Made by a program: the position numbers and the translations under genes. Source: Minisyncoccota bacterium (lineage in GTDB: Bacteria > Patescibacteriota > Minisyncoccia > Phycocordibacterales > Phycocordibacteraceae). From it: DNA of 64,000 bases. Position 1 is the first letter of the stretch, and each line of letters opens with the position of its first letter. Positions 15,772 through 59,535 of the stretch are shown here, piece by piece. Below the pieces are notes generated by a model, which saw nothing but the letters and a program-made list of their open reading frames with translations, was not told where the DNA came from and did not search any database. Where the stretch lies: contig JBAZRE010000001.1 of NCBI GenBank assembly GCA_041663025.1, positions 71,585-135,584 of the forward strand, read 5' to 3'.

Positions 15772-16833
15772 TCATAAATAGTGTTCAAACGTTTTTGGAT
15801 CCATCGTGTGTTCATAGGCGTGTTCAATGGTGACCTCGCCTCGGTGCACAAGCTCGGCGAGTGAACGATCTAGGTCAATCATACCCTCCTGAGAAGAGGT
15901 CTGGACCACTGCACTAATCTCGTGCGTCAACCCGTCACGAATTAGTGTGCTTATAGCGTTGTTGTTAATCAGGAGTTCGTAGGCCGGAATAAGACCTCCG
16001 GAGACACGCGGAATGAGCCGCTGGGAAAAGATACCCGCGAGAGACCCAGCCAATTGCACGCGCACTTGGGCTTGTTGTTCTGGAGGGAACATGTCGATGA
16101 TACGGTCGATGGTCTGCGCGGCGTTGTTTGTGTGAAGAGTTGAAAAGACCAAGTGGCCAGTCTCAGCGGCAGTGACCGCAGCTGAAATTGTCTCGTGGTC
16201 GCGCATTTCACCAACCATAATAACGTCCATATCCTCGCGAAAGGAGTTTTGTAATGCGGCATGAAAATCAGGCGTATCAATATGAACTTCGCGTTGATGG
16301 ATAAGCGACTTGTTCGGTGTGAACACATACTCAATAGGGTCTTCGATAGTGAGAATATGCTCGGCTCGTGAATCATTGATACGATTAAGCATAGCGGCAA
16401 GCGTAGTTGACTTGCCGTGCCCCACTGGCCCGACTACGATGAAAAATCCCTGTTTGCGCTGTGTGAAAACTTCGAGTATCGATGGCAAGTTTAATTCTGC
16501 AAATGTTTGAGCGATATGCGGTATAAGCCGGAGGGCGATAGCGGTTACTCCTTGTGCACAGTATCCATTGACGCGGAAACGCGCGTCCTTCTTGTGTTCA
16601 TACGAGAGGTCAATGGATTGGCTTTCTTTGAATATATTCCAACGGTGTTCTGGCACAATACTCTTGAGCATTGTTTCAGCTTCTTCGCCAGTGATAGCTG
16701 GATACTTCGTGAGTGGAACGAGTGTGCCAGCAACACGAATCATCGGCGGTCCTCCGGCATACACATGGAGATCCGAGCCGCCTTCTGCGACGACGCGGTC
16801 AAGAAGCTCTCCGAGACGGGCATTAGCAGTCAT
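15772..16833 (-). CDS. pilT: Twitching-motility retraction ATPase
   Basis: 353 aa with Walker A GPVGHGKSTT, Asp box and His box, typical of PilT. Confidence 0.88.
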   Translation of the reverse strand: MTANARLGELLDRVVAEGGSDLHVYAGGPPMIRVAGTLVPLTKYPAITGEEAETMLKSIVPEHRWNIFKESQSIDLSYEHKKDARFRVNGYCAQGVTAIALRLIPHIAQTFAELNLPSILEVFTQRKQGFFIVVGPVGHGKSTTLAAMLNRINDSRAEHILTIEDPIEYVFTPNKSLIHQREVHIDTPDFHAALQNSFREDMDVIMVGEMRDHETISAAVTAAETGHLVFSTLHTNNAAQTIDRIIDMFPPEQQAQVRVQLAGSLAGIFSQRLIPRVSGGLIPAYELLINNNAISTLIRDGLTHEISAVVQTSSQEGMIDLDRSLAELVHRGEVTIEHAYEHTMDPKTFEHYL

Positions 16834-17216
16834 GGTTTCCCTTCTATTATGCGCAGAGTCTCTGCAAGGACCTCAGAAGGAACCGCAGACGCTTTTATGA
16901 TATAGCCGGCGACCGCGAGCTGCTTCGCCTTCTCAATATCGGAGCTCTGACCCTGATTCGATAGAATGATGATCTTTGAGTCTTTTGCCAATTTTTCCTT
17001 GCGTATCGTCTCAAGCGCTTCAAAACCACTCACGCCAGGCATAATGATGTCGAGTAGGATGGCATCTGGCGCACTGGTATCTTTATTCCTAAGTGCAGAC
17101 AGGAGGTCCTCTCCACCACCGAACACACTCACCTCATGACCGGCGTTTTTAAACTTAACTGCATACAAATCAAGAAGGAACTTGTCGTCATCGACTAGAT
17201 AAATGTGATAGGCCAT
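16830..17216 (-). CDS. Single-domain response regulator (CheY-like REC only)
   Basis: Begins MAYHIYLVDDD, with phospho-acceptor Asp in LLDIIMPG and Lys in IILSNQG. It sits between pilB and pilT, and its stop overlaps the pilT start. Confidence 0.75.
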   Translation of the reverse strand: MAYHIYLVDDDKFLLDLYAVKFKNAGHEVSVFGGGEDLLSALRNKDTSAPDAILLDIIMPGVSGFEALETIRKEKLAKDSKIIILSNQGQSSDIEKAKQLAVAGYIIKASAVPSEVLAETLRIIEGKP

Positions 17217-17242
17217 TGGTAGATAGTATACACGCTTCAGCG

Positions 17243-19030
17243 TCAACTTATTTCCTCCTCGGGGAAAAGTTCCCCGCCGAGCGTATTTACCTCTTCAAAA
17301 GGTATCTCACCCGCAAGGGCCTTTATAATGGCATCTTCGCGCATGGTGAACATGCCCCCAGCGCGCGCGGCGGCATAGACATTCTCCTCAACCGGATTCT
17401 TCAATACTACTTGTTCAATATCCTTATTCATACGAAGTATTTCAAAGACAGCGGTACGACCGCGCGTGCCATTCGGGCTCTCAGCTGTTGCAGCGGCATG
17501 ATAGAAGTCCTTAAATGGAGGTAGGTTCCCTCTGTACTCTTTTGGCAAGTCCGCAAATTCACGCTCAAGGAGTATCTTGAGACTATCCGTAACTGGGAAA
17601 GGTTTCCCTCCACCTTCAGAAAACTTTCGGACGAGACGTTGTCCGATGACCGCAACGAGTGTTGGGGCAATAAGGAACGGGTCGACACCCATGTCGACTA
17701 GACGAGGAATCGCACCAGAAGCAGTATTGGTGTGAATAGTTGAGAATACGAGGTGACCGGTCAATGCCGCCTGAACAGCGAGTACCGCCGTCTCCTTATC
17801 ACGAATTTCTCCAACCATGATGATGTCAGGATCTTGGCGCAATACAGAGCGAAGTCCGCTCGCAAAAGTGTAACCAATCTCTGGTCGCACCTGACTCTGC
17901 GATACATTCGGGATCTCATATTCGACAGGATCTTCGAGCGACACGACGTTTGCCTTCTCGCGATCAAGCTCAGAAAGCATAGCGAAAAGTGTCGTCGACT
18001 TACCAGAACCAGTAGGGCCGGCTATGAGAATGATGCCATAGGGGGCCTTCACCATATCTCGCACGGCAATGAGATGAGTACTGGTGAATCCGACCGACTC
18101 AAGTGTTGCGGTCTTGGCTGATTGATCAAGAATACGCATCACCACCTTCTCACCATATTCAGTCGGGAACGTTGACACACGGAAGTCGATGCGGCGATTC
18201 TCTACAGTCGCCGAAAAACGTCCGTCCTGTGGTTTCCGCTTTTCATCGAGACGCAGTTTCGCGAGAATCTTGATGCGGGCAACAACCGCTTCGTGCACTT
18301 TTACCGGTAGTTCCAAAGAAGTGTGGAGGTCGCCGTCCATACGGAAACGAATGCGCGTTTTGGTTGGCGATGGCTCAACGTGAATATCTGACGAGTGCCC
18401 TTCAATGGCATACCGCAACATCGTTGAAACGATCTTTGTCACCGGAGCATCTTCCTTCAAGGTCTCATGGGGACCAGTTAGAACGAGTGATTCTTCGCTC
18501 CAGGCGGCTTCTTGTTGTGGAGTTGGCTCGCCACCCTTCTGTGCAGAGGCATCTCCAGGCGGCTTCGAGGTCGTTTCGTATTCAAAGAGCGCTTTGCCGA
18601 TTTCGCCAGAGAGATTTTCATACGCATTGAGTACTCGATCGAAATCTTCTTTTGTGATGAGAGAAATTTTATAGGGAATGCCTATTTTCCCAGAGATGAA
18701 CTGCAGTGCGTCGAGGGCTTCAATGTTGTCGGGATCGGTAATACCAACCTCGAGCGCGCCATCCACCTTCGCGAGCGGTACAAACCCATAATGTCGAGCT
18801 GAATCGATGGGCACATAGCTGAAAACAGAATCGTCAGCTGGCGGATCACCAAGAAGTCGCGTTGGGAGTCCATATTCCTTCCCCGCTTCGGCAAGTGCGC
18901 TCTCAAGTTTTACTCCGTGTTCAGAGAGCACTTCAGCAAGTGGACGCCCTTTCGCGAGATCCGATTCTACGATTGCTCGGTCGCTTGCAGAAAGGATTCC
19001 TTTATCAACAAATAATCCTAAAAGATTCAT
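17243..19030 (-). CDS. pilB: Type IV pilus assembly ATPase (GspE/PilB family)
   Basis: 595 aa with a T2SSE_N domain and Walker A LIAGPTGSGKSTTL. Confidence 0.9.
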   Translation of the reverse strand: MNLLGLFVDKGILSASDRAIVESDLAKGRPLAEVLSEHGVKLESALAEAGKEYGLPTRLLGDPPADDSVFSYVPIDSARHYGFVPLAKVDGALEVGITDPDNIEALDALQFISGKIGIPYKISLITKEDFDRVLNAYENLSGEIGKALFEYETTSKPPGDASAQKGGEPTPQQEAAWSEESLVLTGPHETLKEDAPVTKIVSTMLRYAIEGHSSDIHVEPSPTKTRIRFRMDGDLHTSLELPVKVHEAVVARIKILAKLRLDEKRKPQDGRFSATVENRRIDFRVSTFPTEYGEKVVMRILDQSAKTATLESVGFTSTHLIAVRDMVKAPYGIILIAGPTGSGKSTTLFAMLSELDREKANVVSLEDPVEYEIPNVSQSQVRPEIGYTFASGLRSVLRQDPDIIMVGEIRDKETAVLAVQAALTGHLVFSTIHTNTASGAIPRLVDMGVDPFLIAPTLVAVIGQRLVRKFSEGGGKPFPVTDSLKILLEREFADLPKEYRGNLPPFKDFYHAAATAESPNGTRGRTAVFEILRMNKDIEQVVLKNPVEENVYAAARAGGMFTMREDAIIKALAGEIPFEEVNTLGGELFPEEEIS

Positions 19031-25937: not shown

Positions 25938-26225
25938 ATGTCGAAGACAAGATTCTTGGTCATTGGTGCGGTAGTGGTCACCATGTTCGCAGTTCTCGTC
26001 CCTTCCTTGCAAAAGGAAAACAGTCGGAACCTTCATTCATGGGAAATGATGTCTGAGCCAGAGATGGCAAGGATATCAAAACAGGCAACCACCCAAAAGG
26101 CTAAAGGCAAGGCAAAGTGTCTTGCATTGGCAACGGAAGCGACCACCAAAGACTATTACATAGTCGAGGTGCAAAACGTGGCAGGGCATCCTGAAATAGT
26201 TGGGAAGCCAGTGCCGATCAAATGA
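25938..26225 (+). CDS. Hypothetical small secreted/membrane protein (95 aa)
   Basis: A strong SD (AGGAGG) lies 8 nt upstream of the ATG. The product has an N-terminal hydrophobic signal sequence. Confidence 0.5.
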   Translation: MSKTRFLVIGAVVVTMFAVLVPSLQKENSRNLHSWEMMSEPEMARISKQATTQKAKGKAKCLALATEATTKDYYIVEVQNVAGHPEIVGKPVPIK

Positions 26226-28303: not shown

Positions 28304-30262
28304 ATGAACACAGCCCCAGCTCCAGCACCGTCGGCACGACCAAATCCTACACGCACAGATCGACCGTTTCCTGCGCGCCCGCTTCGCCGAAGCTTCAGTG
28401 AGACGAGTCCACGAAGACCGTTTGAGCGCCTGCCTGCCGGTAGGCAGGTTGGTCGCCCGCCCGTTGGTCGCGGAGCACCGCGCCCAGGTAGTGCATCGCG
28501 TCGTATTCAGCGCATACTGCGCCGCCCTTCAGCGAACCCTAGCCGTGTTGTCAAAGATGCGGACTACTTCCCTGAGCCAGTAGGGCCAACTTCGGTTCGC
28601 ATTATTCCGTTTGGTGGCGTTGAAGAAGTTGGTCGCAACATGCTTGCCGTTGAAGTGGGAGCAACTGGAGATATTCTCGTCCTCGATGCAGGATTCCAAT
28701 TTGTGTCTGAAGACGTCTCTCCTGGCGTCGACTACATTCTCCCGAATACGAAATATCTTGAGAAGAATGCCTCGCGTGTTAAGGGGGTCATAATCACTCA
28801 CGGTCACCTCGATCACATTGGCGGTATCCCATTCACCCTGCCGCGCTTTGGCACACCACCGATCTATACACAGAATCTGACATCAATCATGATCCAGAAG
28901 CGGCAAGAAGAATATCCAGACGTACCCAAATCAGAGATGATCATTGTCGAAGTAGGCCAATCGGTGACGATCGGCTCAACGAAGGTTAAATTCTTCCCAG
29001 TTACTCACTCGATTCCTGACTCTATGGGCGTTTCGATAGAAACTCCACAAGGCAATGTGGTCATCACTGGTGACTTGAAGCTCGAGCATGACGACGGTAC
29101 CCCATCAGAGCGCGAGCAGAAGACGTGGGGCGCCATCGGTAAAGACAAAAATATTTTCTTCATCGCTGATTCAACGAACGCCGAAAGGGACGGTTTCTCC
29201 ATCCCAGAGAAGCGTGTCATCCAGACGCTCGAGGATATCGTGAAGACAGTCTCTGGCCGCCTTATCATCGGCACCTTTGCTTCGCAATTCGAGCGCATGA
29301 TTCATATCATGGAGGCCGCGGAGAAATATAATAAGAAAATTGTTCTTGAAGGGCGCTCGATAAAAACTAATCTCGAGATTGCCGAGAAGACTGGACTTCT
29401 TAAGCTCGACAAGGGCACGATAATTCCAGCACAGGATATCGGCAATTATCCGCCTGATAAGATCGTCATTCTCTCGACCGGTGCGCAAGGCGAGGAATTT
29501 GCAGGACTCATGCGCATCGCAACAAAACAACATAAATACATCACGCTATCCGAGCGCGACACTATAGTGCTCTCTTCTTCAGTCATTCCTGGTAATGAAA
29601 TTTCTGTGCAAAAATTGAAGGATAACTTGTACCGTCATAATGTAACGCTTATTCACTATCGATCTTCAGATGTCCATTCAACCGGACATGGTAATGCCGG
29701 TGAGCTTGTGTGGATCAATCAGCAGGTACACCCGAAGTTCTTCATGCCATGCTATGGCTATCACTCGATGCTTCGCTGTCATGCAAAAGCTGTTGAACAA
29801 TCGGGATTCCCCAAAGAGAACATCGTGGTGCCGGACAATGGCTTTGTCATTGATATTGAGGATGGTGAGCGCATGAATGTGCATAAGCAAAAAGTGCCAT
29901 CTGCACAAATGGTAGTTGATGGGTTTAACATCGGTGACATTCAAGAAGTTGTGATTCGCGACCGCCAATCGCTCGCAAAAGATGGCATGTTTGTGATTAT
30001 CGCGAGCGTGAACCTGAAGACCGGCAAATTACGCAAGAGTCCAGACATCATCAGTCGCGGATTTATCTACTTGCGCGAATCACAAAATCTCCTCAACGAG
30101 GCACGTATTCTCATCAAAAAGACCGTTGAGGATTCAACGCGCAACATGAATCCGATTGATCTTGATTATGTGAAAAATAATCTCACCGACACCATCGCTG
30201 GCTACCTATTCAATCGCACCAACAAAGCCCCGATGGTAATTCCGGTGCTCATAGGAATGTAG
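28304..30262 (+). CDS. rnj: Ribonuclease J (MBL + beta-CASP) with a ~95 aa Arg/Pro-rich N-terminal extension
   Basis: Carries VRIIPFGGVEEVGRNM, the HxHxDH motif ITHGHLDHIGG, a beta-CASP domain and a C-terminal domain. Confidence 0.88.
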   Translation: MNTAPAPAPSARPNPTRTDRPFPARPLRRSFSETSPRRPFERLPAGRQVGRPPVGRGAPRPGSASRRIQRILRRPSANPSRVVKDADYFPEPVGPTSVRIIPFGGVEEVGRNMLAVEVGATGDILVLDAGFQFVSEDVSPGVDYILPNTKYLEKNASRVKGVIITHGHLDHIGGIPFTLPRFGTPPIYTQNLTSIMIQKRQEEYPDVPKSEMIIVEVGQSVTIGSTKVKFFPVTHSIPDSMGVSIETPQGNVVITGDLKLEHDDGTPSEREQKTWGAIGKDKNIFFIADSTNAERDGFSIPEKRVIQTLEDIVKTVSGRLIIGTFASQFERMIHIMEAAEKYNKKIVLEGRSIKTNLEIAEKTGLLKLDKGTIIPAQDIGNYPPDKIVILSTGAQGEEFAGLMRIATKQHKYITLSERDTIVLSSSVIPGNEISVQKLKDNLYRHNVTLIHYRSSDVHSTGHGNAGELVWINQQVHPKFFMPCYGYHSMLRCHAKAVEQSGFPKENIVVPDNGFVIDIEDGERMNVHKQKVPSAQMVVDGFNIGDIQEVVIRDRQSLAKDGMFVIIASVNLKTGKLRKSPDIISRGFIYLRESQNLLNEARILIKKTVEDSTRNMNPIDLDYVKNNLTDTIAGYLFNRTNKAPMVIPVLIGM

Positions 30263-36023: not shown

Positions 36024-36416
36024 TTATAGGGAGAAACTTACTCTAACGACCTCTTGTAGAAGCGCACGAAACAGCTTTTCATCGAGAGTGCATATCTTAT
36101 TTTTCAATCGCTTGCGATCAATGAAGCGAACCTGTGAGAGTACCGCCACAGCATCTCGATCTTCGATTTTGCCAACAGAGAAATAATACTTACCCTGTTT
36201 TGGTCTCCCGGTTAGCGGCACGATAAGACATGCATCAAGGTTGAATTTTTTGAGGATAACAACGGGGCGTTCGAAGTCTTGACCACCATCTTGTTCAAAG
36301 CCAATATTTGCACCCAAGGCACACCACCACACTTCCCTTTCATGAAATAGAGCCGTGCCTTCAACCTTATTGAGATGTTCTTTTTTGGTATGCCACTTCC
36401 AAAAATCTTTTTCCAT
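36024..36416 (-). CDS. mazF: MazF/PemK-family endoribonuclease toxin (orphan)
   Basis: Blocks REVWWCALGANIGFEQDG-ERPVVILK, ACLIVPLTGRPKQGKYYF and DAVAVLSQVRFIDRKRL align with E. coli MazF. No antitoxin ORF lies in the 18 nt upstream gap. Confidence 0.75.
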   Translation of the reverse strand: MEKDFWKWHTKKEHLNKVEGTALFHEREVWWCALGANIGFEQDGGQDFERPVVILKKFNLDACLIVPLTGRPKQGKYYFSVGKIEDRDAVAVLSQVRFIDRKRLKNKICTLDEKLFRALLQEVVRVSFSL

Positions 36417-36434: not shown

Positions 36435-37826
36435 TTAAATCTTTTTTACTGATTCTTTCGTGATCTCCCAGGTTTGGCCGACTTCGGGGACTATGGCGCG
36501 GGCGCCGAGGTAGTCGTGGACACGCTGAGCGAGAAATCGCTCGGTGGCGGGCTCACCCATCGCGACAAAGATCGCTTTTGGCCGCTTCTCGGCGAGCGCC
36601 GCCTCGGCGAAGGTGAGAAGTTCGTCCCGGTCAGCGTGTGCCGACCAACCCTCCAGAAGCTCCACTTTTGCTCTTATTTTGACCTCATGGCCATTGAGGC
36701 GTACAGAGGGCGAACCCTCCGCCATGCGCCTCCCAGGGCTCCCAGGGGCCTGATAACCGGCGATTATCAGGGTCGTGGTTGGATCGGGCAGATAGAGCGA
36801 CTCCCACTTCCCTATCCTGCCGCCATGACTCATGCCAGCGCCAGCGATAATGATCTTCGGGTTTGGAGTATTCTTTATCGCCTCAGACTCCTCGCGTGAA
36901 AGCGTCTCCTTGAGGAACGGAAATTCAAAAATACTTTTTTCTCTTTTCATCTCCTCTTCGGTCTCGGGCTTAAAATATTTCATCCCCCACTTTTCATAAA
37001 TAGCCGTAACGTGTATCGCGAGTGGCGAATCAAGAAAGACAGGGATCTTTGTTAATTGTTTGGCATCAAAAAAATTAGAGAGCTCATAGAGCATAAGTTG
37101 TGTGCGCTCGAGTGAAAATGCGGGGATGAGGATGGTGCCGTTCTTCGCAATTGCCTTTTTCAGCACCTCGACCAAGATCTCAGTGCGTCGCTGCTGCTCC
37201 GGATGAATTCTATCTCCGTACACACTCTCCATCACCATCGCATCGGCGTCAGGCACTGGCTCCCAATTGGGCAAGAGTGGTGAGGGTGAATTACCAATGT
37301 CGCCAGTTAGTACAATCGTTGTTCCCTCTTCATCAGTGATTCGCACGCTCGCCGAGCCAAGTATATGACCGGTATTGCGAAGATATATTGAAAGACCATC
37401 GGCAATTTTTTTCTCTTTATGATATTCAAGTGTTTCGATAAGCGAGATTGCCAGATCAACATCCTTTTCTTCATAGATAGGCAGCACGCCGTTTCTAGCA
37501 GCCTCTTCGCCCAAGATGCCAACCGAGTCACGCAAGATAAGCTCAGCGAGATCCTTGGTCGGCGGCGTCATGTATATCTTCCCGCGAAACCCGTCTCGAA
37601 CTAATTTTGGAATACGGCCGACATGGTCAAGATGTGCGTGCGTTAATACAAGCGCTTCAATAGTTTTTGCATCATACGGAAACGCATCGTGCATGTGTGC
37701 CTCACTGAAGTCATGGCCTTGTTCTATTCCACAATCAACGAGAATTTTTCCTTTTGATCCTTCAACCAAAAAATTTGAACCGGTTACTTTCCCGGTGCCA
37801 CCATAAAAACTTAAACGCAATGACAT
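36435..37826 (-). CDS. MBL-fold beta-CASP RNA-metabolising hydrolase (COG1236/CPSF73-like)
   Basis: HxHxDH motif LTHAHLDHVGR, beta-CASP motifs and a C-terminal His. Length is 463 aa. Confidence 0.75.
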   Translation of the reverse strand: MSLRLSFYGGTGKVTGSNFLVEGSKGKILVDCGIEQGHDFSEAHMHDAFPYDAKTIEALVLTHAHLDHVGRIPKLVRDGFRGKIYMTPPTKDLAELILRDSVGILGEEAARNGVLPIYEEKDVDLAISLIETLEYHKEKKIADGLSIYLRNTGHILGSASVRITDEEGTTIVLTGDIGNSPSPLLPNWEPVPDADAMVMESVYGDRIHPEQQRRTEILVEVLKKAIAKNGTILIPAFSLERTQLMLYELSNFFDAKQLTKIPVFLDSPLAIHVTAIYEKWGMKYFKPETEEEMKREKSIFEFPFLKETLSREESEAIKNTPNPKIIIAGAGMSHGGRIGKWESLYLPDPTTTLIIAGYQAPGSPGRRMAEGSPSVRLNGHEVKIRAKVELLEGWSAHADRDELLTFAEAALAEKRPKAIFVAMGEPATERFLAQRVHDYLGARAIVPEVGQTWEITKESVKKI

Positions 37827-38072: not shown

Positions 38073-38549
38073 TTAGAACGATTCTTCGGCGTTAATGAAT
38101 CCAAAATCATTACGCGTATAATCAAAAAGCTCCTCCTCTTTAAAGAATCGAGTGACTTCTGTGACACCTGCTTCGACACTATCTGACGCATGAACGATGT
38201 TTGATTGCATAGAGAGCGAGAGATCACCACGGATCGTGCCCGCAGCAGCCTCATAGGCCTTCGTCGGGCCGACAATAAGACGAGTTGCGGCAACCGCATT
38301 AATCCCCGAGAGAGCCATGACTACCACGGGAGCTGATTTCATATAGCTCTTGATGCCACTAAAGAACGGCTTATCCTTGATATGCGCATAATGTGCTTCG
38401 AGGAGAGCGTCTTCGAGCTGGATCATCTTCATGCCGATAATCTTGAGACCTTTGCGCTCTAAGCGACTGATGACTTCTCCCATAAGTCCGCGGTGCACCG
38501 CATCGGGTTTAAGAATAATAAGAGCCTTTTCTTCTTTTGGATGTGCCAT
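38073..38549 (-). CDS. ndk: Nucleoside diphosphate kinase
   Basis: Active-site His in NIVHASDS; 158 aa. Confidence 0.92.
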   Translation of the reverse strand: MAHPKEEKALIILKPDAVHRGLMGEVISRLERKGLKIIGMKMIQLEDALLEAHYAHIKDKPFFSGIKSYMKSAPVVVMALSGINAVAATRLIVGPTKAYEAAAGTIRGDLSLSMQSNIVHASDSVEAGVTEVTRFFKEEELFDYTRNDFGFINAEESF

Positions 38550-39313
38550 TATCTTGTGATGATACGCGCTCCGTCCTTTTGGAGCAAGATCGTGTGCTCG
38601 AAGTGGGCTGAACGCGAACCATCTTTTGTTCTGAAGGTGTAGCCGTCGGGAGAAAGTGTGACCGCTGATTTTCCTGCGGCTGAGATCGGCTCGAGAGCGA
38701 GTACCATACCTTCTTTCAGTTCTATCCCCTTACCAGCGCGGCCGAAGTTAGAGATATACGGTTCTTCGTGCACTTCATCACCCACTCCGTGCCCGCCGAG
38801 TGCCTTCACCACACTGAATCCTGCTCCTTCAATTTCTTCTTGAATCGCGTGTGAAATATCTCCCATATGACCTCCCACTTTTGCTGCGGCAATACCTGCA
38901 GCGAGTGCTGCTTCGGTAGTATGGAGCAACTTTTTTGATTCTCCATCTATTTTCCCAACGGGGACAGTAACAGCAGCATCAACAACAACGCCTTCATGAG
39001 TGAGCCCGAAATCCAAACCGACTATGTCACCTTCTTTCAAAACTTTCGGTGACTCATTTGGAATGCCGTGCACGACTTCGTCGTTTATCGAGACGCAAAG
39101 CGCTGCTGGATAAGAGCGCGAAGCGCCATCAGGTGTGTAGCCGAGGAAAGCGGGAGAATCACCACCTTCACGAATGAGTTGCTCAACCAAATCATCAAGC
39201 TCTTCTGCTGTTACCCCAGCCGCAACCTTGTCGCGAAGCACGGCCATGATGCGCGCGAGACGCTTCCCTGCTTCGACAAGCTTCTCCTGCTCAGAAGCAT
39301 TTGTAATTATCAT
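38549..39313 (-). CDS. map: Methionine aminopeptidase type I
   Basis: Pita-bread fold motifs and metal ligands (D, D, H, E, E) in the expected contexts. Confidence 0.92.
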   Translation of the reverse strand: MIITNASEQEKLVEAGKRLARIMAVLRDKVAAGVTAEELDDLVEQLIREGGDSPAFLGYTPDGASRSYPAALCVSINDEVVHGIPNESPKVLKEGDIVGLDFGLTHEGVVVDAAVTVPVGKIDGESKKLLHTTEAALAAGIAAAKVGGHMGDISHAIQEEIEGAGFSVVKALGGHGVGDEVHEEPYISNFGRAGKGIELKEGMVLALEPISAAGKSAVTLSPDGYTFRTKDGSRSAHFEHTILLQKDGARIITR

Positions 39314-39882
39314 TGCAAATTAAGCACCTTGAGAATATCTTCTGCGATTGGCTCGCGCGCCCGCTCGCCGTCTATTTCAATAAGCATGCCTTTCTCGCGA
39401 AACATCTCGACGACCGGCTCGGTGTTCGCATAATATTCTTTCAAACGCTCATCAACAATACTCCCCGTATCGTCCACGCGACCTTGAATCTCTTTGCGCA
39501 AAGAAATTCGTTTTTTAATTTCTTCATCAGATACTTTTAAATACAAAACAGAGAACGATCGGTTAAGCCAGCTAAGAGCTTCAACCGCCAGTTCTGCTTC
39601 GGGAAGTTTTCGGCTGAATCCGTCAAAGATGATACTTTCATCTTCTGCGAGCGAAAAAAGATTTTTTAAAAATAAATAGACGGCGAACCAGTGCGGAGCG
39701 AGAAGTCCAGCGTCTATTTCTGCTTTCATTTTTCGTCCAACCGGAGTATCTTCGGCCGCTATCGCGCGGAAGCCGTCTCCACTCGACAAGATTCTCCATC
39801 CTGTTTTTTCCGAGAGAAACTTCGACTGATCATCTTTCCCGCAGCCCGGCTTCCCGATAAAAAAAATGGTTTTTGTTTCCAT
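39310..39882 (-). CDS. adk: Adenylate kinase
   Basis: P-loop GKPGCGKDDQ with LID/NMP-binding segments. Confidence 0.9.
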   Translation of the reverse strand: METKTIFFIGKPGCGKDDQSKFLSEKTGWRILSSGDGFRAIAAEDTPVGRKMKAEIDAGLLAPHWFAVYLFLKNLFSLAEDESIIFDGFSRKLPEAELAVEALSWLNRSFSVLYLKVSDEEIKKRISLRKEIQGRVDDTGSIVDERLKEYYANTEPVVEMFREKGMLIEIDGERAREPIAEDILKVLNLQ

Positions 39883-39970
39883 CTGACTACTTTAACATTC
39901 TCGAAATGTTTCGCAATAAAATGAAAAACCTCCGAATCTCTGCTTGCGCAAAGACCCGGAGGGTAAAACT

Positions 39971-40360
39971 TTATTCAATTTCAATCCTCCCTTCACTTAC
40001 TGCTCTCCTTACGTCGACTGCTGCCACTTCCCGAAGCCAATTCAAGATTGAATTCATATCGAACGGCTTTTCAATCACTTCGTCGGCAAGATGATCGATT
40101 GGCACCCCATTTGGGTTACCGGTTATGATGAGTACCGGCATATTTGATTTTTGGCATTTTGCTATTTTCGTTAGCTCGGCGCCGTCCATTCTTGGCATCT
40201 CTAAGTCAGTGATTAATACATCTGCGTTGTTGAGATACTGAATAGCACTTCCTCCGTCTACACACGCGATTACTTCGAATTCGAAATTCTCAAGAAACCC
40301 TTTAAGAAATTCTCGCATCGTTTTCGAATCGTCAACAAGTAGCACTTTCTTTTTTCTCAT
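39971..40360 (-). CDS. Single-domain response regulator (REC only) inserted between secY and adk
   Basis: Begins MRKKKVLLVDDS, with DLEMPRMDG and a conserved Lys. AGGAGG SD 8 nt upstream; extended -10 TGaTATACT further upstream. Confidence 0.75.
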   Translation of the reverse strand: MRKKKVLLVDDSKTMREFLKGFLENFEFEVIACVDGGSAIQYLNNADVLITDLEMPRMDGAELTKIAKCQKSNMPVLIITGNPNGVPIDHLADEVIEKPFDMNSILNWLREVAAVDVRRAVSEGRIEIE

Positions 40361-40448
40361 CTCTATGCCTCCTCTTTTTAGACTTGTTTTGTACTTCTTA
40401 TCTCTGTCTGTGGAACAGTATATCACCCTTTTTGCAAAACGCAAACGG

Positions 40449-41723
40449 TTAATATTCCCGGAGGGAAACTTGTGCGTCGATCTTCTGTGCAAGGTCAAGA
40501 GCTACTTGGACAGCGATAAGGAGTGCCGTACCGCCAAGAACGAGTGTTGTAACGCCCGTGATGCCTTGAATGATTGATGGCGCAACTGCGAGAAGACCGA
40601 GGAAGCAGGCTCCGGGGAGCGTGACACGGGTCACAATGTTGCCGATGTATTCTTCAGTCTCACGGCCAGGGCGCACGCCAGGAACAAAGGCGCCTGTTTT
40701 CTGAAGATTCTCCGCGACGCGATGCGGCTCGAAGGTGACGGCAGTATAGAAGTAGGTGAAGAGCACAACGAGGACAAAATAGACCGCGCCATATTGCCAC
40801 GGATTAGAGAGGAAGGCGGTATACCAGAGTGCTGCACCAGCAGCAAACGAGACATGCACCGCACCCAACATCGAGAGCACCATCTGCGGTAAGAGTAGGA
40901 GTGAGAGTGCAAAAATAATCGGGATAACGCCCGCCTGCAAGAGACGTATCGGGAGATAGGTCGCCGCACCTTGAGACATCGCGGCGCCGCGCACCGCTCG
41001 CGCATACGCGATCGGTATAGAACGTTCAGCATCAGAGACGACAACGACTGCATAAATCATTGCGATTGCGAGGGCGAGAAAGGCGAGGTATGCCGGAATA
41101 TTTGCGGCAGTAGAAGCAAAAATGGCATTTGAGATACTTGAGGGCACGCTTGCGAGAATCCCTGCGAGAATGATGAGTGACACGCCATTGCCGATACCGA
41201 ATTCGGTGACGAGCTCGCCGAGCCACATGAGGAGCATCGATCCGGCAGCAACAATCGCGATGTCAGTGATAAACGCGACTGTGCCGAGACGCATCAAGAC
41301 ACCCTGGCTCTGGAGAAGAAGCAAGAATCCAATCGCTTGAAGGATAGCAATCGGAATAGTGAGAAGACGGCTCCATTCGATGAAACGAGCACGACCGGCC
41401 TCTCCTTCCTCAAAGTAAGCCTGCTTTATTTGTGGGAAGATGATCGTCCCAAGCTGCATGATGATTGAAGCGGTAATGTAGGGACCAACGCCAAGCATCA
41501 CAATGGAGAGTTGTGAGAGCCCGCCACCAGAAAAGATATTCAAAAGACCGAAAAATTGATTACTCGCAAAGAATGATGCGAGTGCAACACGATCAACACC
41601 AGGTATCGGTATCGAAGCGAGAAGGCGGAAGAGTGCGAGTGCACCGAGAAGAAAAAGTATGCGACGACGGATTTCAGAGTCGCCGAAAGCGAGTTTAATC
41701 TTCCGAATAAAAGAATTAAGCAT
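40449..41723 (-). CDS. secY: Preprotein translocase SecY
   Basis: Ten TM helices; start set at MLNSFIRKIK. Confidence 0.93.
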   Translation of the reverse strand: MLNSFIRKIKLAFGDSEIRRRILFLLGALALFRLLASIPIPGVDRVALASFFASNQFFGLLNIFSGGGLSQLSIVMLGVGPYITASIIMQLGTIIFPQIKQAYFEEGEAGRARFIEWSRLLTIPIAILQAIGFLLLLQSQGVLMRLGTVAFITDIAIVAAGSMLLMWLGELVTEFGIGNGVSLIILAGILASVPSSISNAIFASTAANIPAYLAFLALAIAMIYAVVVVSDAERSIPIAYARAVRGAAMSQGAATYLPIRLLQAGVIPIIFALSLLLLPQMVLSMLGAVHVSFAAGAALWYTAFLSNPWQYGAVYFVLVVLFTYFYTAVTFEPHRVAENLQKTGAFVPGVRPGRETEEYIGNIVTRVTLPGACFLGLLAVAPSIIQGITGVTTLVLGGTALLIAVQVALDLAQKIDAQVSLREY

Positions 41724-42168
41724 TGCAGGTACCGCCGGCTGCGAGAAGTGCCGCACGCGCAACGACTGAAACAGTACACCCGTTAACGATAAATGCCTTC
41801 GTGAGCGGGCCCTTACCGAGAATCTTCACGACTGGAGCGCGACCTTTCGCACGACGCACGAGCCCTTTCGCGAGAAGCGTCGATGGCGAAACGGTCTCGC
41901 CTGAAGTATACATCGCCTCAAGCTCTGTGAGATTAACTGCGGTAAGATCATTTCGGTTTGTTCGGACCGTGCGTGAACGATTCTTGCCATGCCCGCGAAG
42001 CTTCGGGAGTTTCTTGATCATGTCGCGCGATTCTGGACGAATCTTGTGCCCGGCGCGAGCACTCTGCCCCTTATGTCCGTGACCGCTGGTCTTGCCACGC
42101 TTGCCACCGCGACCAACTGGTTCGGGCTTCTTGTTCTTGGTGCGAGGGGCGATTGTGTTGAGTTGCAT
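41716..42168 (-). CDS. rplO: 50S ribosomal protein L15
   Basis: Gly/Lys/Arg-rich N-terminus GRGGKRGKTSGHGHKGQ. Confidence 0.9.
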   Translation of the reverse strand: MQLNTIAPRTKNKKPEPVGRGGKRGKTSGHGHKGQSARAGHKIRPESRDMIKKLPKLRGHGKNRSRTVRTNRNDLTAVNLTELEAMYTSGETVSPSTLLAKGLVRRAKGRAPVVKILGKGPLTKAFIVNGCTVSVVARAALLAAGGTCNA

Positions 42169-48230: not shown

Positions 48231-48587
48231 TTATTTTTTAGCGGCGGGTTTCGCAGCGGCAGTAGATTCTTTTGCCGCTTTTGCAGAAGCAATCTCAGAC
48301 TCGGCCTTCTTGGCCTCCATCTCCTTCTGCATCTTGCCGCCATGACGGATGAACTTCTTGGTTGGCGAGAATTCGCCGAGGCGATGCCCCACCATCTCTT
48401 CAGAGACGAGCACCTCGAGATGTTGCTTGCCGTTATGGACACCAAAGGTGAAGCCGATCATGTCTGGGCTGATCTGGCTGCGGCGTGCCCACGTCTTAAT
48501 CACTCCCGCCGTGGACGGTTTTGCATTCTGAACCTTCTTCAAGAGTTTGAAGTCTATGAAAGGTCCTTTTTTGAGTGAGCGTGACAT
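48231..48587 (-). CDS. rpsS: 30S ribosomal protein S19 (with Lys/Ala-rich C-terminal tail)
   Basis: [19 protein letters not shown]...GHRLGEF. Confidence 0.92.
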
Positions 48588-48727: not shown

Positions 48728-49840
48728 TTAGAGAGCGAAGACCTTCGCACGGGTCATAGGCCCAAACCACCCCGTCGGAGGGAGCCCGACACTCTTCTGG
48801 AATTTTATGAGTGCCGTATAGGTTTTGAAGCCGAAGTAGGTAGTCTCATTGCCGGGAGAGCCGACACCGCCAGCAGCGATACTGAAGCCGTGGGTATTGA
48901 GGAATTGCTGGAGCACTTTGACGTCATTATTTGTCTGGTAGAGCGAGAGATTACGCGTAAAGGAAAACGAAGTTTTTTTAGTAGAAGCGGATGTGATGGG
49001 AGTGGAAGTGGCTGGAGAAGATGGGGCTGTGAACGCCACTTTTACCGAAGAAGATTGTGGAGAAACGCGGCCTTTTGTGTCATACGATGCGATTGTATAG
49101 GTATGTGTGCTTCCTGGGGAGACAGTTGCTGTATACGAGGTCAATGTGGTGTTTCCGATCTGATATCCATCCTGATAGATATAATATCCAACGACGGAGG
49201 CTGATGGGCTCCATGAGAGCGTCACCTGATAGGAACTATTTGCTGTCGCGGTGAGATTGGTCGGTTGTGGAAGCGATATACCAATAACAGATGCTGGGGT
49301 TGGCGATGGTTGCGTTGTTATCGTAGCAGTCGGTTGTGGTGCACTCGATCCTGATGACGATTGTGTTGTGTTAGAAGAAGGGTTTGAAGCGGGAGCAGAA
49401 GTAACAGGGGCAGAAGTAATTTGAGCTATTGCTTTATGTACTTCACTGGAGAAAGCGCTTTCGTTTCCAGATGTATCAACCGCACTGGTGGAAAAATAAT
49501 ATGTTTGGCCATTGGTCAGGCCGGTGAATGCATAGGTCGTAACGTTGCCTACAGTAATACCCGTGATGTATCCGCACGTGCCACACACCTTGGGGTCAGT
49601 ACCAGTTCGCGGCGAAGTACCATAGTAGATTCTATAATTCGCAAGATCCGATTCGGTGTTGGCATTCCATGTTAGTGTGGCCGTCCCTGTCCCTGAACCA
49701 ATCACTGCAGCCACGTTTGATTTTAGAATCTGATTCTGGAAAAGAGTAACGATGCTTGGATAAGAGACCCATGCAACCCCGGCGAGTAACACCACCGCGA
49801 TTGTCGCCACCACCAGAGTTAGTGCTTTTTTGTTATTCAT
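48728..49840 (-). CDS. Membrane-anchored surface protein with two fibronectin type III domains, Ser/Thr/Pro linker and C-terminal PG_binding_1 peptidoglycan-binding domain
   Basis: FN3 signature LTWNANTESDLANYRIYYGTS. PG-binding motif VKVLQQFLNTHGF...GVGSPGNETTYFGFKTYTALIKFQKSVGLPPTGWFGPMT. Start set at MNNKKALTL. Confidence 0.7.
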   Translation of the reverse strand: MNNKKALTLVVATIAVVLLAGVAWVSYPSIVTLFQNQILKSNVAAVIGSGTGTATLTWNANTESDLANYRIYYGTSPRTGTDPKVCGTCGYITGITVGNVTTYAFTGLTNGQTYYFSTSAVDTSGNESAFSSEVHKAIAQITSAPVTSAPASNPSSNTTQSSSGSSAPQPTATITTQPSPTPASVIGISLPQPTNLTATANSSYQVTLSWSPSASVVGYYIYQDGYQIGNTTLTSYTATVSPGSTHTYTIASYDTKGRVSPQSSSVKVAFTAPSSPATSTPITSASTKKTSFSFTRNLSLYQTNNDVKVLQQFLNTHGFSIAAGGVGSPGNETTYFGFKTYTALIKFQKSVGLPPTGWFGPMTRAKVFAL

Positions 49841-49915
49841 ACGTAACCCGACACGGCCTATGGTAGCACGCAAACTAAAATCCCGTGCCAAGGCACGGGA
49901 TTTTAGTTTTCGGTG

Positions 49916-50764
49916 TTACCCTTTCCTCTTTTTGCCGACTTTGCGGCGAGAGACGATGAAGACGTTTGAATACTTCTTCGGGGTGCGGGTCTTCTGACCC
50001 TTGCCGGACGGCTTGCCCCACATGGTCTTAGCACGTTTGAGGCCTCTACCCTGCTTGCCCTCGCCGCCGCCATGCGGATGGTCAACAGGGTTCATCGCGG
50101 TGCCACGAACGGTAGGACGAATACCGAGCCATCGGGAGCGACCTGCTTTACCGATGACGACGAGGTTGTATTCTTCATTTCCAACTGCTCCTATGGATGC
50201 CCAGCAGAGATCGGAGATCTTTCGAATCTCGGTTGACGGGAGCTTCACCTGCGCGTAGCCGGAGTCATGTGCGACAACTTCTGCAAATACTCCTGCACCA
50301 CGTGCAAGAATAGCGCCTGCTGCAGGAGAAAGTTCAATATTATAAACAAATGTACCAACAGGGATCTTCCCGAGCGGCATGCGATTGCCCATGGTGAGCG
50401 GTGCGTTCTCTCCGACGACAAAAGTCGAGCCGACCTTCATCTCCTTTGGCAAGATGACATAGCGGCGCTCGCCGTCTCGATAGAGTGCGAGGCCGATGAA
50501 GGCCGAACGGAACGGATCGTATTCAACAGTTTCAATCTTCGCAGGGATATCCTTCTTGTTGTAGGAGAAATCAACATCGCGATAGCACTTCTTGTGTCCG
50601 CCGCCCTGATGACGCGTCGTGATACGCCCGAAGCCGTTACGGCCACCCTTGCTTCTGTTCGCCTTCATCAAAGGCTTGTGCGGCGCATCACCCGAGAGAA
50701 GCTCTCGGTATGGCAGTGTGGTCATGAAACGACGACTCTTGGTGGTTGGCTTGTAGGTTTTCAT
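49916..50764 (-). CDS. rplB: 50S ribosomal protein L2
   Basis: 282 aa, with the conserved HPHGGGEGK stretch. Confidence 0.95.
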   Translation of the reverse strand: MKTYKPTTKSRRFMTTLPYRELLSGDAPHKPLMKANRSKGGRNGFGRITTRHQGGGHKKCYRDVDFSYNKKDIPAKIETVEYDPFRSAFIGLALYRDGERRYVILPKEMKVGSTFVVGENAPLTMGNRMPLGKIPVGTFVYNIELSPAAGAILARGAGVFAEVVAHDSGYAQVKLPSTEIRKISDLCWASIGAVGNEEYNLVVIGKAGRSRWLGIRPTVRGTAMNPVDHPHGGGEGKQGRGLKRAKTMWGKPSGKGQKTRTPKKYSNVFIVSRRKVGKKRKG

Positions 50765-57658: not shown

Positions 57659-57685
57659 ATGTTCTAAGGTTAAACCTCAGAACAT
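57659..57685. repeat. REP-like 27 bp palindrome IR1 (ATGTTCTAAGG-TTAAA-CCTCAGAACAT)
   Basis: 11 bp arms with a 5 nt loop; the first of four copies bounding gene cassettes next to the RAYT transposase. Confidence 0.7.
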
Positions 57686-58006
57686 TTGCCCGTGCGATAT
57701 CGTATACTTAAACATGTGGTAACAAACACGATTACAAAACGACGAGATATATCCTGCTCGATATGCGGGAAATCCATGCACGTCGTCTTTTATAAAGACC
57801 GCAGGTATAGGGGCGGACATTACTTTGGGGAAGTACCTGTGTATTCTAAATCCGAGTTGGCGAAAATGCACAGAAGCGGAACTCACCAATCAAAAATTAC
57901 ACCGACGTGGACCATAGATGTGTGTAATTATGATCCAAAACCCCATGCACATTTTGAATATTGGGAGTGCCCGAACTGCTATTGGCATCCGAAATCTAAA
58001 TCTTGA
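57686..58006 (+). CDS. Hypothetical 106 aa zinc-ribbon protein (CSIC...CPNC) bounded by IR1 and IR2
   Basis: Four Cys in two CxxC pairs; the track start is TTG, and an internal ATG at about 57776 is possible. Confidence 0.4.
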   Translation: MPVRYRILKHVVTNTITKRRDISCSICGKSMHVVFYKDRRYRGGHYFGEVPVYSKSELAKMHRSGTHQSKITPTWTIDVCNYDPKPHAHFEYWECPNCYWHPKSKS

Positions 58007-58033
58007 GTGTTCTGAGGTTTAACCTTAGAACAT
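58007..58033. repeat. REP-like palindrome IR2 (inverted orientation: gTGTTCTGAGG-TTTAA-CCTTAGAACAT)
   Basis: Reverse complement of IR1 apart from one base. Confidence 0.7.
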
Positions 58034-58051
58034 CATGCTATGATTTAACCC

Positions 58052-58732
58052 ATGGCGAACAATATCTGTGTTACTGGCGAGTGGTATCACTGCTACAACC
58101 GCGGAACGGATAAAAGAACTGTGTTTGAAGATGTTGCTGATTATGAAAGGTTCCTCACCCTGCTATATGTCAGTAACGGCACAAATTCAATTCGAATTTC
58201 TGATCAACGAACAGGCAGCTTATCTATGTTCCTTGAAAATACATCTATCGACCGCACAGAACCGCTTGTAGAGATTGGTGCGTACGCTCTTATGCCGAAC
58301 CATCCGCATCTAATCTTAAAACAAGTGGCGGATGGGGGCATTGCCCGTTTTATGCAAAAAGTATTCACCGGTTATACCATGTATTTCAATCTTAAAAATA
58401 AACGCACTGGTGCACTTTTTGCGGGTACATATAAATCACGGCACATATCCAACGATCAATATCTGAAACAGGCTATTTCGTACGTTCTGTTGAACCCTGC
58501 AGAGTTGTTCGCAGACGACTGGAAAAAAGGAATGATAGATCTTTCCCAAATAAGAGAGCCTCTCCTTGCCTACCGCTTTTCAAGTCTTTCGGATTTCCTC
58601 GGATCAAAAAGACAAGAAAACAAGATCGTCACAGAGATGGGTGAGTTTTATGAGAAAAAACCAACCCTGGATGAAATGCTCTCGTATGCGATTTCCTACC
58701 ACCAAGAGAACCCCGCAGATACGGAGGTTTAA
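58052..58732 (+). CDS. REP-associated tyrosine transposase (RAYT / IS200-like Y1 HUH transposase, TnpA_REP)
   Basis: HUH motif MPNHPHLIL and catalytic Tyr in ISYVLLNPAE (Y-x3-NP). The stop codon TAA lies in the loop of IR3. Confidence 0.75.
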   Translation: MANNICVTGEWYHCYNRGTDKRTVFEDVADYERFLTLLYVSNGTNSIRISDQRTGSLSMFLENTSIDRTEPLVEIGAYALMPNHPHLILKQVADGGIARFMQKVFTGYTMYFNLKNKRTGALFAGTYKSRHISNDQYLKQAISYVLLNPAELFADDWKKGMIDLSQIREPLLAYRFSSLSDFLGSKRQENKIVTEMGEFYEKKPTLDEMLSYAISYHQENPADTEV

Positions 58733-58741
58733 CCTTAGAAC
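58715..58741. repeat. REP-like palindrome IR3 (left arm degenerate: agatacGGAGG-TTTAA-CCTTAGAACAT)
   Basis: Right arm and loop identical to IR2/IR4. Confidence 0.55.
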
Positions 58742-59509
58742 ATGTGCCGCTTTTTATTTGAAGCGGTGTTTGCTTGAAACGCATTCGTGAGCTCTTCATG
58801 CGAAGGTTGGCGATGTTCTTCTTTAGCCTTACGCATTACTCGACACACCGGACAGTCATCGTCTTCTTTCGAGGAACCTTCGTGTAACCATTCGCTTATA
58901 AGAGTCAAATTTTCTTCAATTTCTGAAACAGAAAGATCTGCTGGTTCAACGTTTCCGTGGATGACTTCATTGTATACCTCACGCGAATCTCGAATGTGGC
59001 GTGAACGTATGATCTCCCAATCTCGGACGGTTGGTTGCAACGCTAATACAGAGGAATTAAGAACTCTCCACTCACCTTTTATTGGAGCAATCCTGCATAT
59101 AAAAACATCTCCTGCGGCAACATCCAAAACACCCGCAGTATCAGCTATCTCATACTGTTTACTGTCATCAATGGCCATCAACATCATGCGGCCATGATTT
59201 GTTGCTTTCACTTCGAAATATCCAAAACGATTGTGTTCCAAAATTGACTTGAGACCCTCGAGGTCCTCGAGGGAAAAATTAAGTGGGTTTGTTCTATGGG
59301 TATAACTAAGCGGCGTTTCGCTTCCCTGATAATGAAAGTTGAAAAGAAACCAATCTAGAAAATATTCGTAAGCATCTTCGCTAATTGGGCCAGTGTCTCC
59401 CGAAAATTCATCCATAGCACGATGGACTTCATTGCCAAACATCCATACATGATCTGGGTGAAGAAAATAATTCAACAAACGTGAAAGTATTTCGACAAGC
59501 ATGCCCATA
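58735..59509 (-). CDS. Hypothetical 257 aa protein (cassette cargo), acidic with C-terminal CPVC
   Basis: Bounded by IR3 and IR4; start set at ATG (MGMLVEIL) with GGAGG 12 nt upstream. No recognised domain. Confidence 0.5.
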
Positions 59510-59535
59510 TTAAAACACAAACCTCCGATGCCAGG

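Follow-up and report, generated by a model that had tools for sequence, protein, structure and literature searches.

We report on a single-domain response-regulator receiver gene, here called REC1, that lies between secY and adk in a 64,000-nucleotide (nt) stretch of a Minisyncoccota bacterium genome (assembly GCA_041663025.1, contig JBAZRE010000001.1, positions 71,585 to 135,584 of the forward strand; this whole 64-kb stretch is called the window below). With a probability of about 0.7, we interpret REC1 as a monocistronic orphan single-domain regulator that arrived by one insertion at a boundary between transcription units, was passed on by vertical descent, and sits at its present location incidentally. 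On this account, a single insertion would have placed the gene between the ribosomal-protein/secY block and a leaderless adk-map-ndk unit; vertical inheritance would have followed, with loss of the gene in the window's sister lineage and loss of the active site in another relative. REC1 would be transcribed from its own extended −10 promoter, as read from the sequence, with a probable additional contribution of read-through from secY, since a terminator scan found no terminator in the window between the secY stop and REC1. It would be translated via one of the genome's few strong Shine-Dalgarno (SD) sites, and a strong terminator would end its transcript and at the same time shield adk. The locus comprises the following features.

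40449..41723, minus strand: secY, 424 amino acids (aa), Pfam SecY E = 8e-94, the last gene of the L15-secY block
40417..40444, minus strand: putative REC1 promoter read from the sequence, with a −35-like TTGCGT (40444..40439), a 16-nt spacer, and an extended −10 TGaTATACT (40425..40417)
40361..40410, minus strand: predicted REC1 5' leader, about 50 nt, purine/A-rich, unstructured
39971..40360, minus strand: REC1 coding sequence, 129 aa plus stop, ATG at 40360, single-domain response-regulator receiver
39921..39962, minus strand: terminator-like hairpin followed by UUUUUCAUUUU, from the terminator scan, starting 9 nt past the REC1 stop
39882..39916, minus strand: putative adk promoter of the leaderless type, with TTGCGA (39916..39911), a 16-nt spacer, TGtTAAAGT (39897..39889), and 6 nt to the ATG
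39310..39882, minus strand: adk, 190 aa, Pfam ADK E = 3.9e-26, heading the adk-map-ndk unit

The interval 39883..40448 is exactly the space from the secY stop (40449) to the adk start (39882); secY and adk are both minus-strand genes, and so is REC1, the one gene in this interval. The protein, whose N terminus begins MRKKKVLLVDDS... / MRKKKVLLVDDSKTMREF..., matched the Pfam family PF00072 (Response_reg; E = 2e-18; score, 67 bits; gathering cut-off, 30.2; residues 6-107) and no other domain; with SecY and ADK as its Pfam-confirmed neighbors, this bears out the proposal of an earlier first-pass annotation that a REC-only (receiver-only) protein is inserted between secY and adk. Longer REC1 starts exist (a mechanical open reading frame [ORF] from TTG 40498 and a 151-aa JGI call); we place the start at ATG 40360 because the homologues all begin at M(K/R)K..LVVDD, each with a G-rich SD before it. 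For secY, similarly, the listed ORF start at 41762 lies upstream of the start common to all homologues, from which the 424-aa protein is read. On the other side of the gap, the map and ndk products were identified by Pfam (Peptidase_M24, E = 1.7e-41, and NDK, E = 1.4e-47, respectively), the first 4 nt of map lie within adk, and base 38549 belongs to both the map stop and the ndk start. The SecY homologues carry the source names Candidatus Kaiserbacteria, Paceibacterota, and Minisyncoccota, and the host is therefore, judging by SecY homology, a bacterium of the Candidate Phyla Radiation (CPR), of the Kaiserbacteria. The REC1 locus is also present in NCBI assembly GCA_041667065.1. The GC content of the gene, 42% versus a gene mean of 50% (standard deviation 3.9), is mildly atypical.

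Aligned sequences give good comparative evidence that REC1 forms a unit with a promoter and a terminator of its own. Synonymous sites are saturated, with dS (synonymous divergence) >1 in nearly every pair of REC-bearing species, and we judge the putative regulatory DNA of REC1 to be probably genuine because it is conserved despite this saturation. Upstream of the gene, the window and the loci L086 and L085 share an identical AAAGGGTGATATACT block, the motif TGNTATA(C/G)T is kept in 6/6 aligned REC-bearing species, and an extended −10 follows secY in L086, L085, L169, L006, and L168, with similar elements in L170 and L172. The SD of REC1 (AGGAGG at 40373..40368, 7 nt ahead of the ATG) has G-rich counterparts throughout the six aligned species, and the block AGAGATAAGAAGTACAAAA is partly conserved. 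Hence the SD and extended −10 that the first-pass annotation had credited to REC1 both stand, and both are phylogenetically conserved; the terminator of the gene is an element absent from that annotation. In the window, the hairpin (39962..39929) has a 15-bp stem and a 4-nt loop ahead of its UUUUUCAUUUU run and a predicted folding energy of −26.5 kcal/mol (z = −7.1; 0/200 shuffles equally stable), and post-REC hairpins with a U-run at −23 to −30 kcal/mol, differing in stem sequence, occur in L086, L006, and L085. The stable hairpin, the U-run, and the keeping of structure over sequence together predict an intrinsic (Rho-independent) terminator; the same stem pattern is seen in L168 and L169 (in the alignment) and in L170 (in the sequence as read), as judged by reading only. 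For adk, the ATG at 39882 has no SD upstream, the −10 lies 6 nt before it, and TTA(A/G)AGTA stands 6 nt ahead of the adk ATG in 6/6 REC-bearing species, a combination of position, missing SD, and cross-species conservation from which a leaderless start is predicted. The REC1 leader RNA is predicted to be unstructured (−1.7 kcal/mol, z = −0.57). A riboswitch or other leader element in the REC1 5' region was considered and dropped, as an Rfam search of 39700..40700 matched no RNA family and the leader shows no structure. An extra hairpin, GTGGAGG-TTTAA-CCTCCAC without a T-run, was observed directly after the secY stop in L085 (5276..5300) and L168 (3891..3915); it is absent from the window.

We traced the family through a SecY scan with one genome per species, placing the neighboring genes by tblastn. 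L006 encodes a 42%-identical receiver at the same secY-adk position, L083 and L084 (SecY 95%) have no receiver and begin adk 18 nt after secY, L085 (SecY 93%) has a 107-aa ORF at the junction with no Pfam match on record, and L086 and L087 (SecY 91%) carry a 110-aa receiver. A word-index search with a four-protein REC1 profile recovered nine clusters at 122-196 bits, the next matches scoring ≤103 bits, and an exhaustive HMMER search added nine further short single-domain members with the same signature (P0261, P0285, P0296, P0319, P0367, P0379, P0386, P0389, and P0390), which brings the family to at least 18 sequence clusters. The result of a first single-sequence search, that REC1 had no relative above 34% identity, was rejected as an artefact of word-index sensitivity, the profile searches having given 17 further clusters. 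A metagenome scan with the REC family alignment returned no family members: its degenerate patterns matched generic receivers, the best of them 41% identical among the matches listed. The order secY-REC-adk (on short contigs, REC next to either secY or adk) was found in 8/8 clusters with readable context (the window, L006, L085, L086, L168, L169, L170/L171, and L172). In a neighbor-joining tree built with a simple distance on concatenated L6, L18, S5, L15, and SecY, the REC-bearing loci group with the REC-less L083 in a single clade (bootstrap 0.895; 0.86 once L173 is added), the window and L083 are sisters (bootstrap 1.0), and L173, of a guanylate-kinase lineage, falls outside the REC clade. 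By these sequence searches, the REC1 family is so far seen in one subclade of Candidatus Kaiserbacteria (Paceibacteria, CPR) only, and the simplest history on the tree would be that REC1 was gained once and that the L083 lineage later lost it or had the allele replaced. For this lineage, recombinational replacement is as plausible as precise deletion, because the L083 spacer resembles the ancestral 18-nt form (see below). We regard the REC1 family as small, previously undescribed, and lineage specific; the kind of protein that it represents is itself very well known.

The secY-adk junctions of related genomes bear on the location of the gene. In REC-less Kaiserbacteria, the spacer is often 18 nt, AAGTG(C/T)TAGAGTAAGCGG-ATG, and combines an extended −10 with an ATG 6 nt downstream; 18-nt spacers with the leaderless −10 only occur in L008, L011, L015, L024, and L083. 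The −10 of REC-less junctions takes the form TG(C/T)TAGAGT followed by 6 nt and the ATG, with the same spacing in most of the 18 short junctions listed, and L014, L017, and L023 place a hairpin and T-run ahead of the same −10 element. Because REC-less spacers carry this same −10, 6-nt interval, and ATG, we take the leaderless-type adk promoter to be ancestral and secY/adk to be a transcription-unit boundary. Judging from the genes found there, Paceibacteria also seem to have had genes inserted or replaced repeatedly at this junction: guanylate kinase occupies it in L004, L020, L030, and L046 (and in L173, apparently as a substitute for adk), L027 has a DUF559 endonuclease-like gene together with a weak DUF5680-like one, L040 has a PaaX_M-like gene, and L007 and L012 have unknown ORFs. 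These insertions share their site with REC1 but differ from it in content; a receiver is found at the junction only in the REC1 subclade, and REC1 brings its own promoter and terminator. Since different genes or nothing fill the junction in other lineages, the location of REC1 is best read as a permissive landing site with no functional link to its neighbors. The first-pass description of the gene as lying in the ribosomal-protein operon is accordingly right as to the gap beside secY but offers no functional clue, the junction being a transcription-unit boundary and a recurrent insertion site. Elsewhere in the spc operon, the close relative L086 (94..1119) has a PaaX_M-like gene (193 aa) and an opposite-strand 86-aa ORF between rplE and rpsN.

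REC1 is the fastest-evolving gene of its neighborhood, with a nonsynonymous divergence (dN) of 0.35-0.47. The corresponding values for Adk (about 0.22), Map (about 0.15), and SecY (0.05-0.09) are lower, which puts the nonsynonymous rate of REC1 at about 2 times that of Adk and 5-8 times that of SecY. The least saturated pair, L006-L168, which is the sole roughly informative pair for dN/dS (ω), the others being saturated, gave ω = 0.19. The active-site quintet of the window copy is intact (D10, D11, D52, T80, and K98, at predicted strand ends); the first-pass annotation had named nonconservation of the Asp and Lys residues, i.e., a pseudoreceiver, as what would refute it, and the window copy keeps Asp, Thr, and Lys. 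Across the family, the acceptor Asp is kept in 17/18 members, Thr/Ser in 17/18, and Lys in 16/18; 16 or 17 of 18 have Asp as the first acidic residue (P0389, with VVEDD, is alignment dependent), the second Asp is kept in 16/18, and at least 13/18 keep the whole quintet. In the L085/P0139 orthologue, four of the five residues are replaced (DN for DD, S for D, V for T, and R for K), which makes it a pseudoreceiver, and the β3-α3 loop carries a deletion; P0142 is without the active-site Lys, and P0379 has DN for DD. The substitution pattern indicates that REC1 is under purifying selection in most lineages, that of the window included, yet dispensable.

An AlphaFold2 model of REC1 built from a nine-member alignment is confident (pLDDT 91.3, pTM 0.84). 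It has strands β1 5-9, β2 29-33, β3 48-52, β4 76-80, and β5 94-97 and helices α1 13-24, α2 36-45, α3 60-70, and α5 102-122; in place of α4, the predicted structure has only a three-residue turn (83-85). The loop G81-D93 that replaces α4 carries the family signature G-x4-(V/I/L)P-xx-H-x-A-D, i.e., a conserved β4-β5 linker, VPxxHLAD, with P87, H90, A92, and D93, and Val95 occupies the aromatic switch position (K-3). Because the window copy keeps a complete phosphoacceptor site, Asp52 is most likely the phosphoryl acceptor, the donor being perhaps a kinase or Hpt protein encoded outside the window or a small molecule. The predicted lack of α4 and the Val in place of the aromatic switch residue suggest that REC1 probably does not use the classical α4-β5-α5 output or CheY-type allosteric switching; it would more likely act as a phosphotransfer intermediate or phosphate sink, or bind a partner via the VPxxHLAD linker. 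Missing α4 and a nonaromatic β5 have been reported for Sma0114, SdrG, and CckA-Rec, and such receivers or intermediaries are argued to work, in all probability, without allosteric control of the α4-β5-α5 face and to shuttle or absorb phosphoryl groups instead (PMC9981736).

Several points weigh against this interpretation. The promoter, the terminator, and the leaderless adk start are features that we infer from sequence, and a consensus promoter scan (rule, at least 4 of 6 positions in the −35) called neither the REC1 nor the adk promoter, the −35 elements of which match the consensus at just 3-4 of 6 positions. Extended −10 and SD motifs are not significant by count (TGNTAWANT, 10 observed versus 11.3 expected); with counts at chance level and neither promoter called by the strict scan, the promoter case rests on conservation. 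The phylogeny is based on no more than five proteins and a simple distance method (neighbor joining). The loss in L083, the decay in L085/P0139, the missing Lys of P0142, and the DN of P0379 show a dispensable gene, and REC1 may be drifting in some lineages. The sink or intermediate mechanism is drawn by analogy with the FATGUY proteins (see below), whose motif is only partly present in REC1. Finally, no HisKA, HATPase_c, or Hpt match (Pfam) was found among 42 scanned ORFs of the window, which are most of the longer ones outside the ribosomal/translation-factor cluster (GroEL/GroES, IF3/L35/L20, EF-Tu, EF-G, most ribosomal proteins, several pilin/minor-pilin ORFs, and ORFs below about 95 aa lie outside this set); for these 42, the earlier statement that the window encodes no cognate kinase is correct.

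An alternative that we consider unlikely is that REC1 regulates pili or twitching alongside a second receiver of the window, REC2, for example as a sink that competes with REC2 in the way of PilH versus PilG.

16830..17246, minus strand: REC2, Pfam Response_reg E = 6.3e-19, REC-only, within the type IV pilus operon

Phosphosignaling into pili is made plausible by the complete type IV pilus cluster in which REC2 is embedded (order pilM..pilB-REC2-pilT-pilC-pilins-pilD; Pfam neighbors T2SSE/PilB, T2SSE/PilT, T2SSF, PilM, PilO, and prepilin peptidase A24; three pilin-like genes, with the N-terminal methylation motif Pfam confirmed for one). REC2 adjoins PilB (17243..19030) and PilT (15772..16833) and overlaps each by 4 nt, and because it overlaps pilB and pilT inside the pilM..pilD cluster, a pilus-control function of REC2 is a reasonable idea. 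Its presence and its placement between these genes, both already noted in the first pass, are confirmed by Pfam; the boundary given there, 17216, is not retained, since AGGAGG (17259..17254, within the pilB 3' end) lies 7 nt before TTG 17246 and makes this TTG (138 aa) probably the start rather than ATG 17216. By sequence reading, REC2 looks canonical, its T position being occupied by Ser and K-3 by Tyr (a single-sequence AlphaFold2 model had a pLDDT of 41 and was not used), and a division of labor between a canonical REC2 as effector and an α4-less, nonaromatic REC1 as sink would suit the pair; pairs of single-domain regulators that control pili are documented (PMC7029496). CheY-like genes are also enriched in attached organisms, being 2 times as frequent in sediment-attached as in planktonic ultra-small metagenome-assembled genomes from groundwater (PMC9938205), a pattern that fits an accessory, lifestyle-linked role.

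REC1, however, is monocistronic and unlinked to the pil genes, lying 23 kb from the cluster, and is limited to one small subclade, within which it has been lost or degraded. It is 24% identical to REC2, an identity at which we also rejected an origin of REC1 from a recent duplication of REC2. Positions in α1 of receivers usually set partner specificity; by sequence reading, these are T/M/F/F in REC1 versus F/L/L/K in REC2, a difference that suggests different partners for the two. No CheA/ChpA-like kinase was found among the scanned window ORFs. The first-pass suggestion that REC1 might act in pilus or twitching control is therefore not supported.

That REC1 is tied to its neighbors, either because read-through of the secY operon couples growth rate to signaling or because REC1 modulates SecY, translation, or the nucleotide kinase, strikes us as very improbable. 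The strict synteny in 8/8 readable family clusters speaks for such a tie, as does the missing terminator between secY and REC1, owing to which spc-operon transcripts should enter REC1 and end at the REC1 terminator. One insertion followed by vertical descent in a shallow clade nevertheless explains the synteny; moreover, REC1 has its own conserved promoter and terminator, sister lineages have unrelated genes or nothing at the junction, and the closest sampled relative is without REC1. A bolder reading, which we consider a long shot, would make the family a CPR-specific, α4-less Rec-only class with the VPxxHLAD linker in place of the usual output face, made partly by read-through and serving as a growth-coupled phosphate sink or phosphotransfer hub; if true, the REC1 level would track growth rate in an organism with a minimal two-component repertoire. 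Very improbable too, in our estimate, is that REC1 is a functionless passenger, horizontally acquired or duplicated and now decaying, as might be read from its fast evolution, its loss in L083, an active site that is destroyed in L085/P0139 and partially so in P0142 and P0379, its GC content of 42% against the 50% mean, and its atypically strong SD in an SD-poor genome, since the ω of about 0.2 in the least saturated pair, the acceptor Asp in 17/18 and whole quintet in at least 13/18 members, the regulatory DNA conserved despite saturated synonymous sites, and the confident fold prediction all argue against it.

The interpretation of REC1 as an independent orphan regulator at a permissive junction adds orphan single-domain receivers to the inventory of CPR bacteria, whose signaling is little studied, and the intact, partly degraded, fully degraded, and lost copies make a useful natural series for Rec-only function in minimal genomes. 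It also calls for caution in guilt-by-association arguments, as a "ribosomal operon" gene here sits at a boundary that has repeatedly accepted unrelated genes. The expression signals of the lineage, with a leaderless-type adk promoter across many Kaiserbacteria and few SDs in the window, suggest a departure from textbook operon models. The REC1 finding alone opens no long-standing question.

Other observations in the window concern these expression signals and the gene content. An SD is present at about 14/76 window genes by a loose test, most genes having none, and many genes have TAnnnT 5-8 nt before the start codon (e.g., 6133, 12871, 32559, 37826, 39882, and 58052), which suggests, by motif position, that leaderless mRNAs are common in this Kaiserbacterium. 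REC1 and a 95-aa ORF (25938..26225) are among the few genes with AAGAGGAGG. A literature search on two-component systems or leaderless mRNAs in Kaiserbacteria or CPR bacteria found nothing specific. A nonribosomal gene lies within the S10 operon, namely, a 387-aa ORF (48728..49891, minus strand) with fibronectin type III and PG_binding_1 domains between rplB (49916..50764) and rpsS (48231..48587). A 226-aa ORF (58052..58732) gave a weak match to IS200-like Y1 transposases (E = 0.002, below the Pfam cut-off), and repeated gttctgaggtttaaccttagaac-like sequences occur at 57680..59530 upstream of three ORFs neighboring it. Two metallo-β-lactamase/β-CASP ribonuclease-like genes are present (28304..30262, plus strand, and 36435..37826, minus strand), one of the RNase J type with an N-terminal extension of about 100 aa and the other of the β-CASP/RMMBL type; the latter lies immediately after ndk, has a leaderless-type TGTTAAAGT promoter, and is followed by a PemK/MazF-like toxin gene (36024..36416).

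Among known systems, PDB sequence and Foldseek searches matched REC1 to generic receivers (Spo0F, RR468, CheY, and the receiver domains of PhoP, CpxR, and PorX) at TM scores of about 0.75-0.80. The NCBIfam equivalogs stayed below their cut-offs (CpdR, 55.5 versus 180 bits; DVU0259_DivK, 49.5 versus 160; CheY_Halo, 44.8 versus 200), and no Spo0F model was among the 25 best NCBIfam matches listed. Like the Rec-only regulators CheY, Spo0F, DivK, and CpdR, REC1 has one receiver domain, no output domain, and an acidic pocket with Thr and Lys; it differs from them in the G-x4-VP-xx-HLAD loop that stands for α4 in the model, in the Val at the switch position, and in having no che, fli, or spo partners nearby. 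An assignment to chemotaxis CheY is contradicted by the CheY_Halo score, by Val95, and by the absence of che and fli genes among the scanned window ORFs. PilG/PilH-type receivers are likewise small and CheY-like and control pilus extension and retraction; REC2 is pil linked, whereas REC1 is not, and of the marks of this type REC1 shows neither pil linkage nor a Chp/CheA-like kinase among the scanned window ORFs, while REC2 shows the pil linkage only. A further parallel is the FATGUY group of Rec-only proteins (Sma0114, SdrG, and MrrA, with the CckA receiver), which share with the predicted REC1 structure the missing or degenerate α4 and with its sequence the lack of an aromatic residue on β5, and the T-G after β4. 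Their motif PFxFATG[G/Y] (PMC9981736) differs from the REC1 family sequence P-V-L-I-(I/M)-T-G-(N/K/R): in the family consensus, MPVLIMTG plus a variable residue, the T-G is present, but neither of the Phe residues nor the final Gly/Tyr is. The β4-β5 linker, described as variable in CckA-Rec, is conserved in the REC1 family, and the FATGUY proteins are alphaproteobacterial and kinase associated, whereas the REC1 family is a CPR orphan. REC1 thus appears to resemble the FATGUY group at most by analogy, as a separate CPR family rather than as a member of it.

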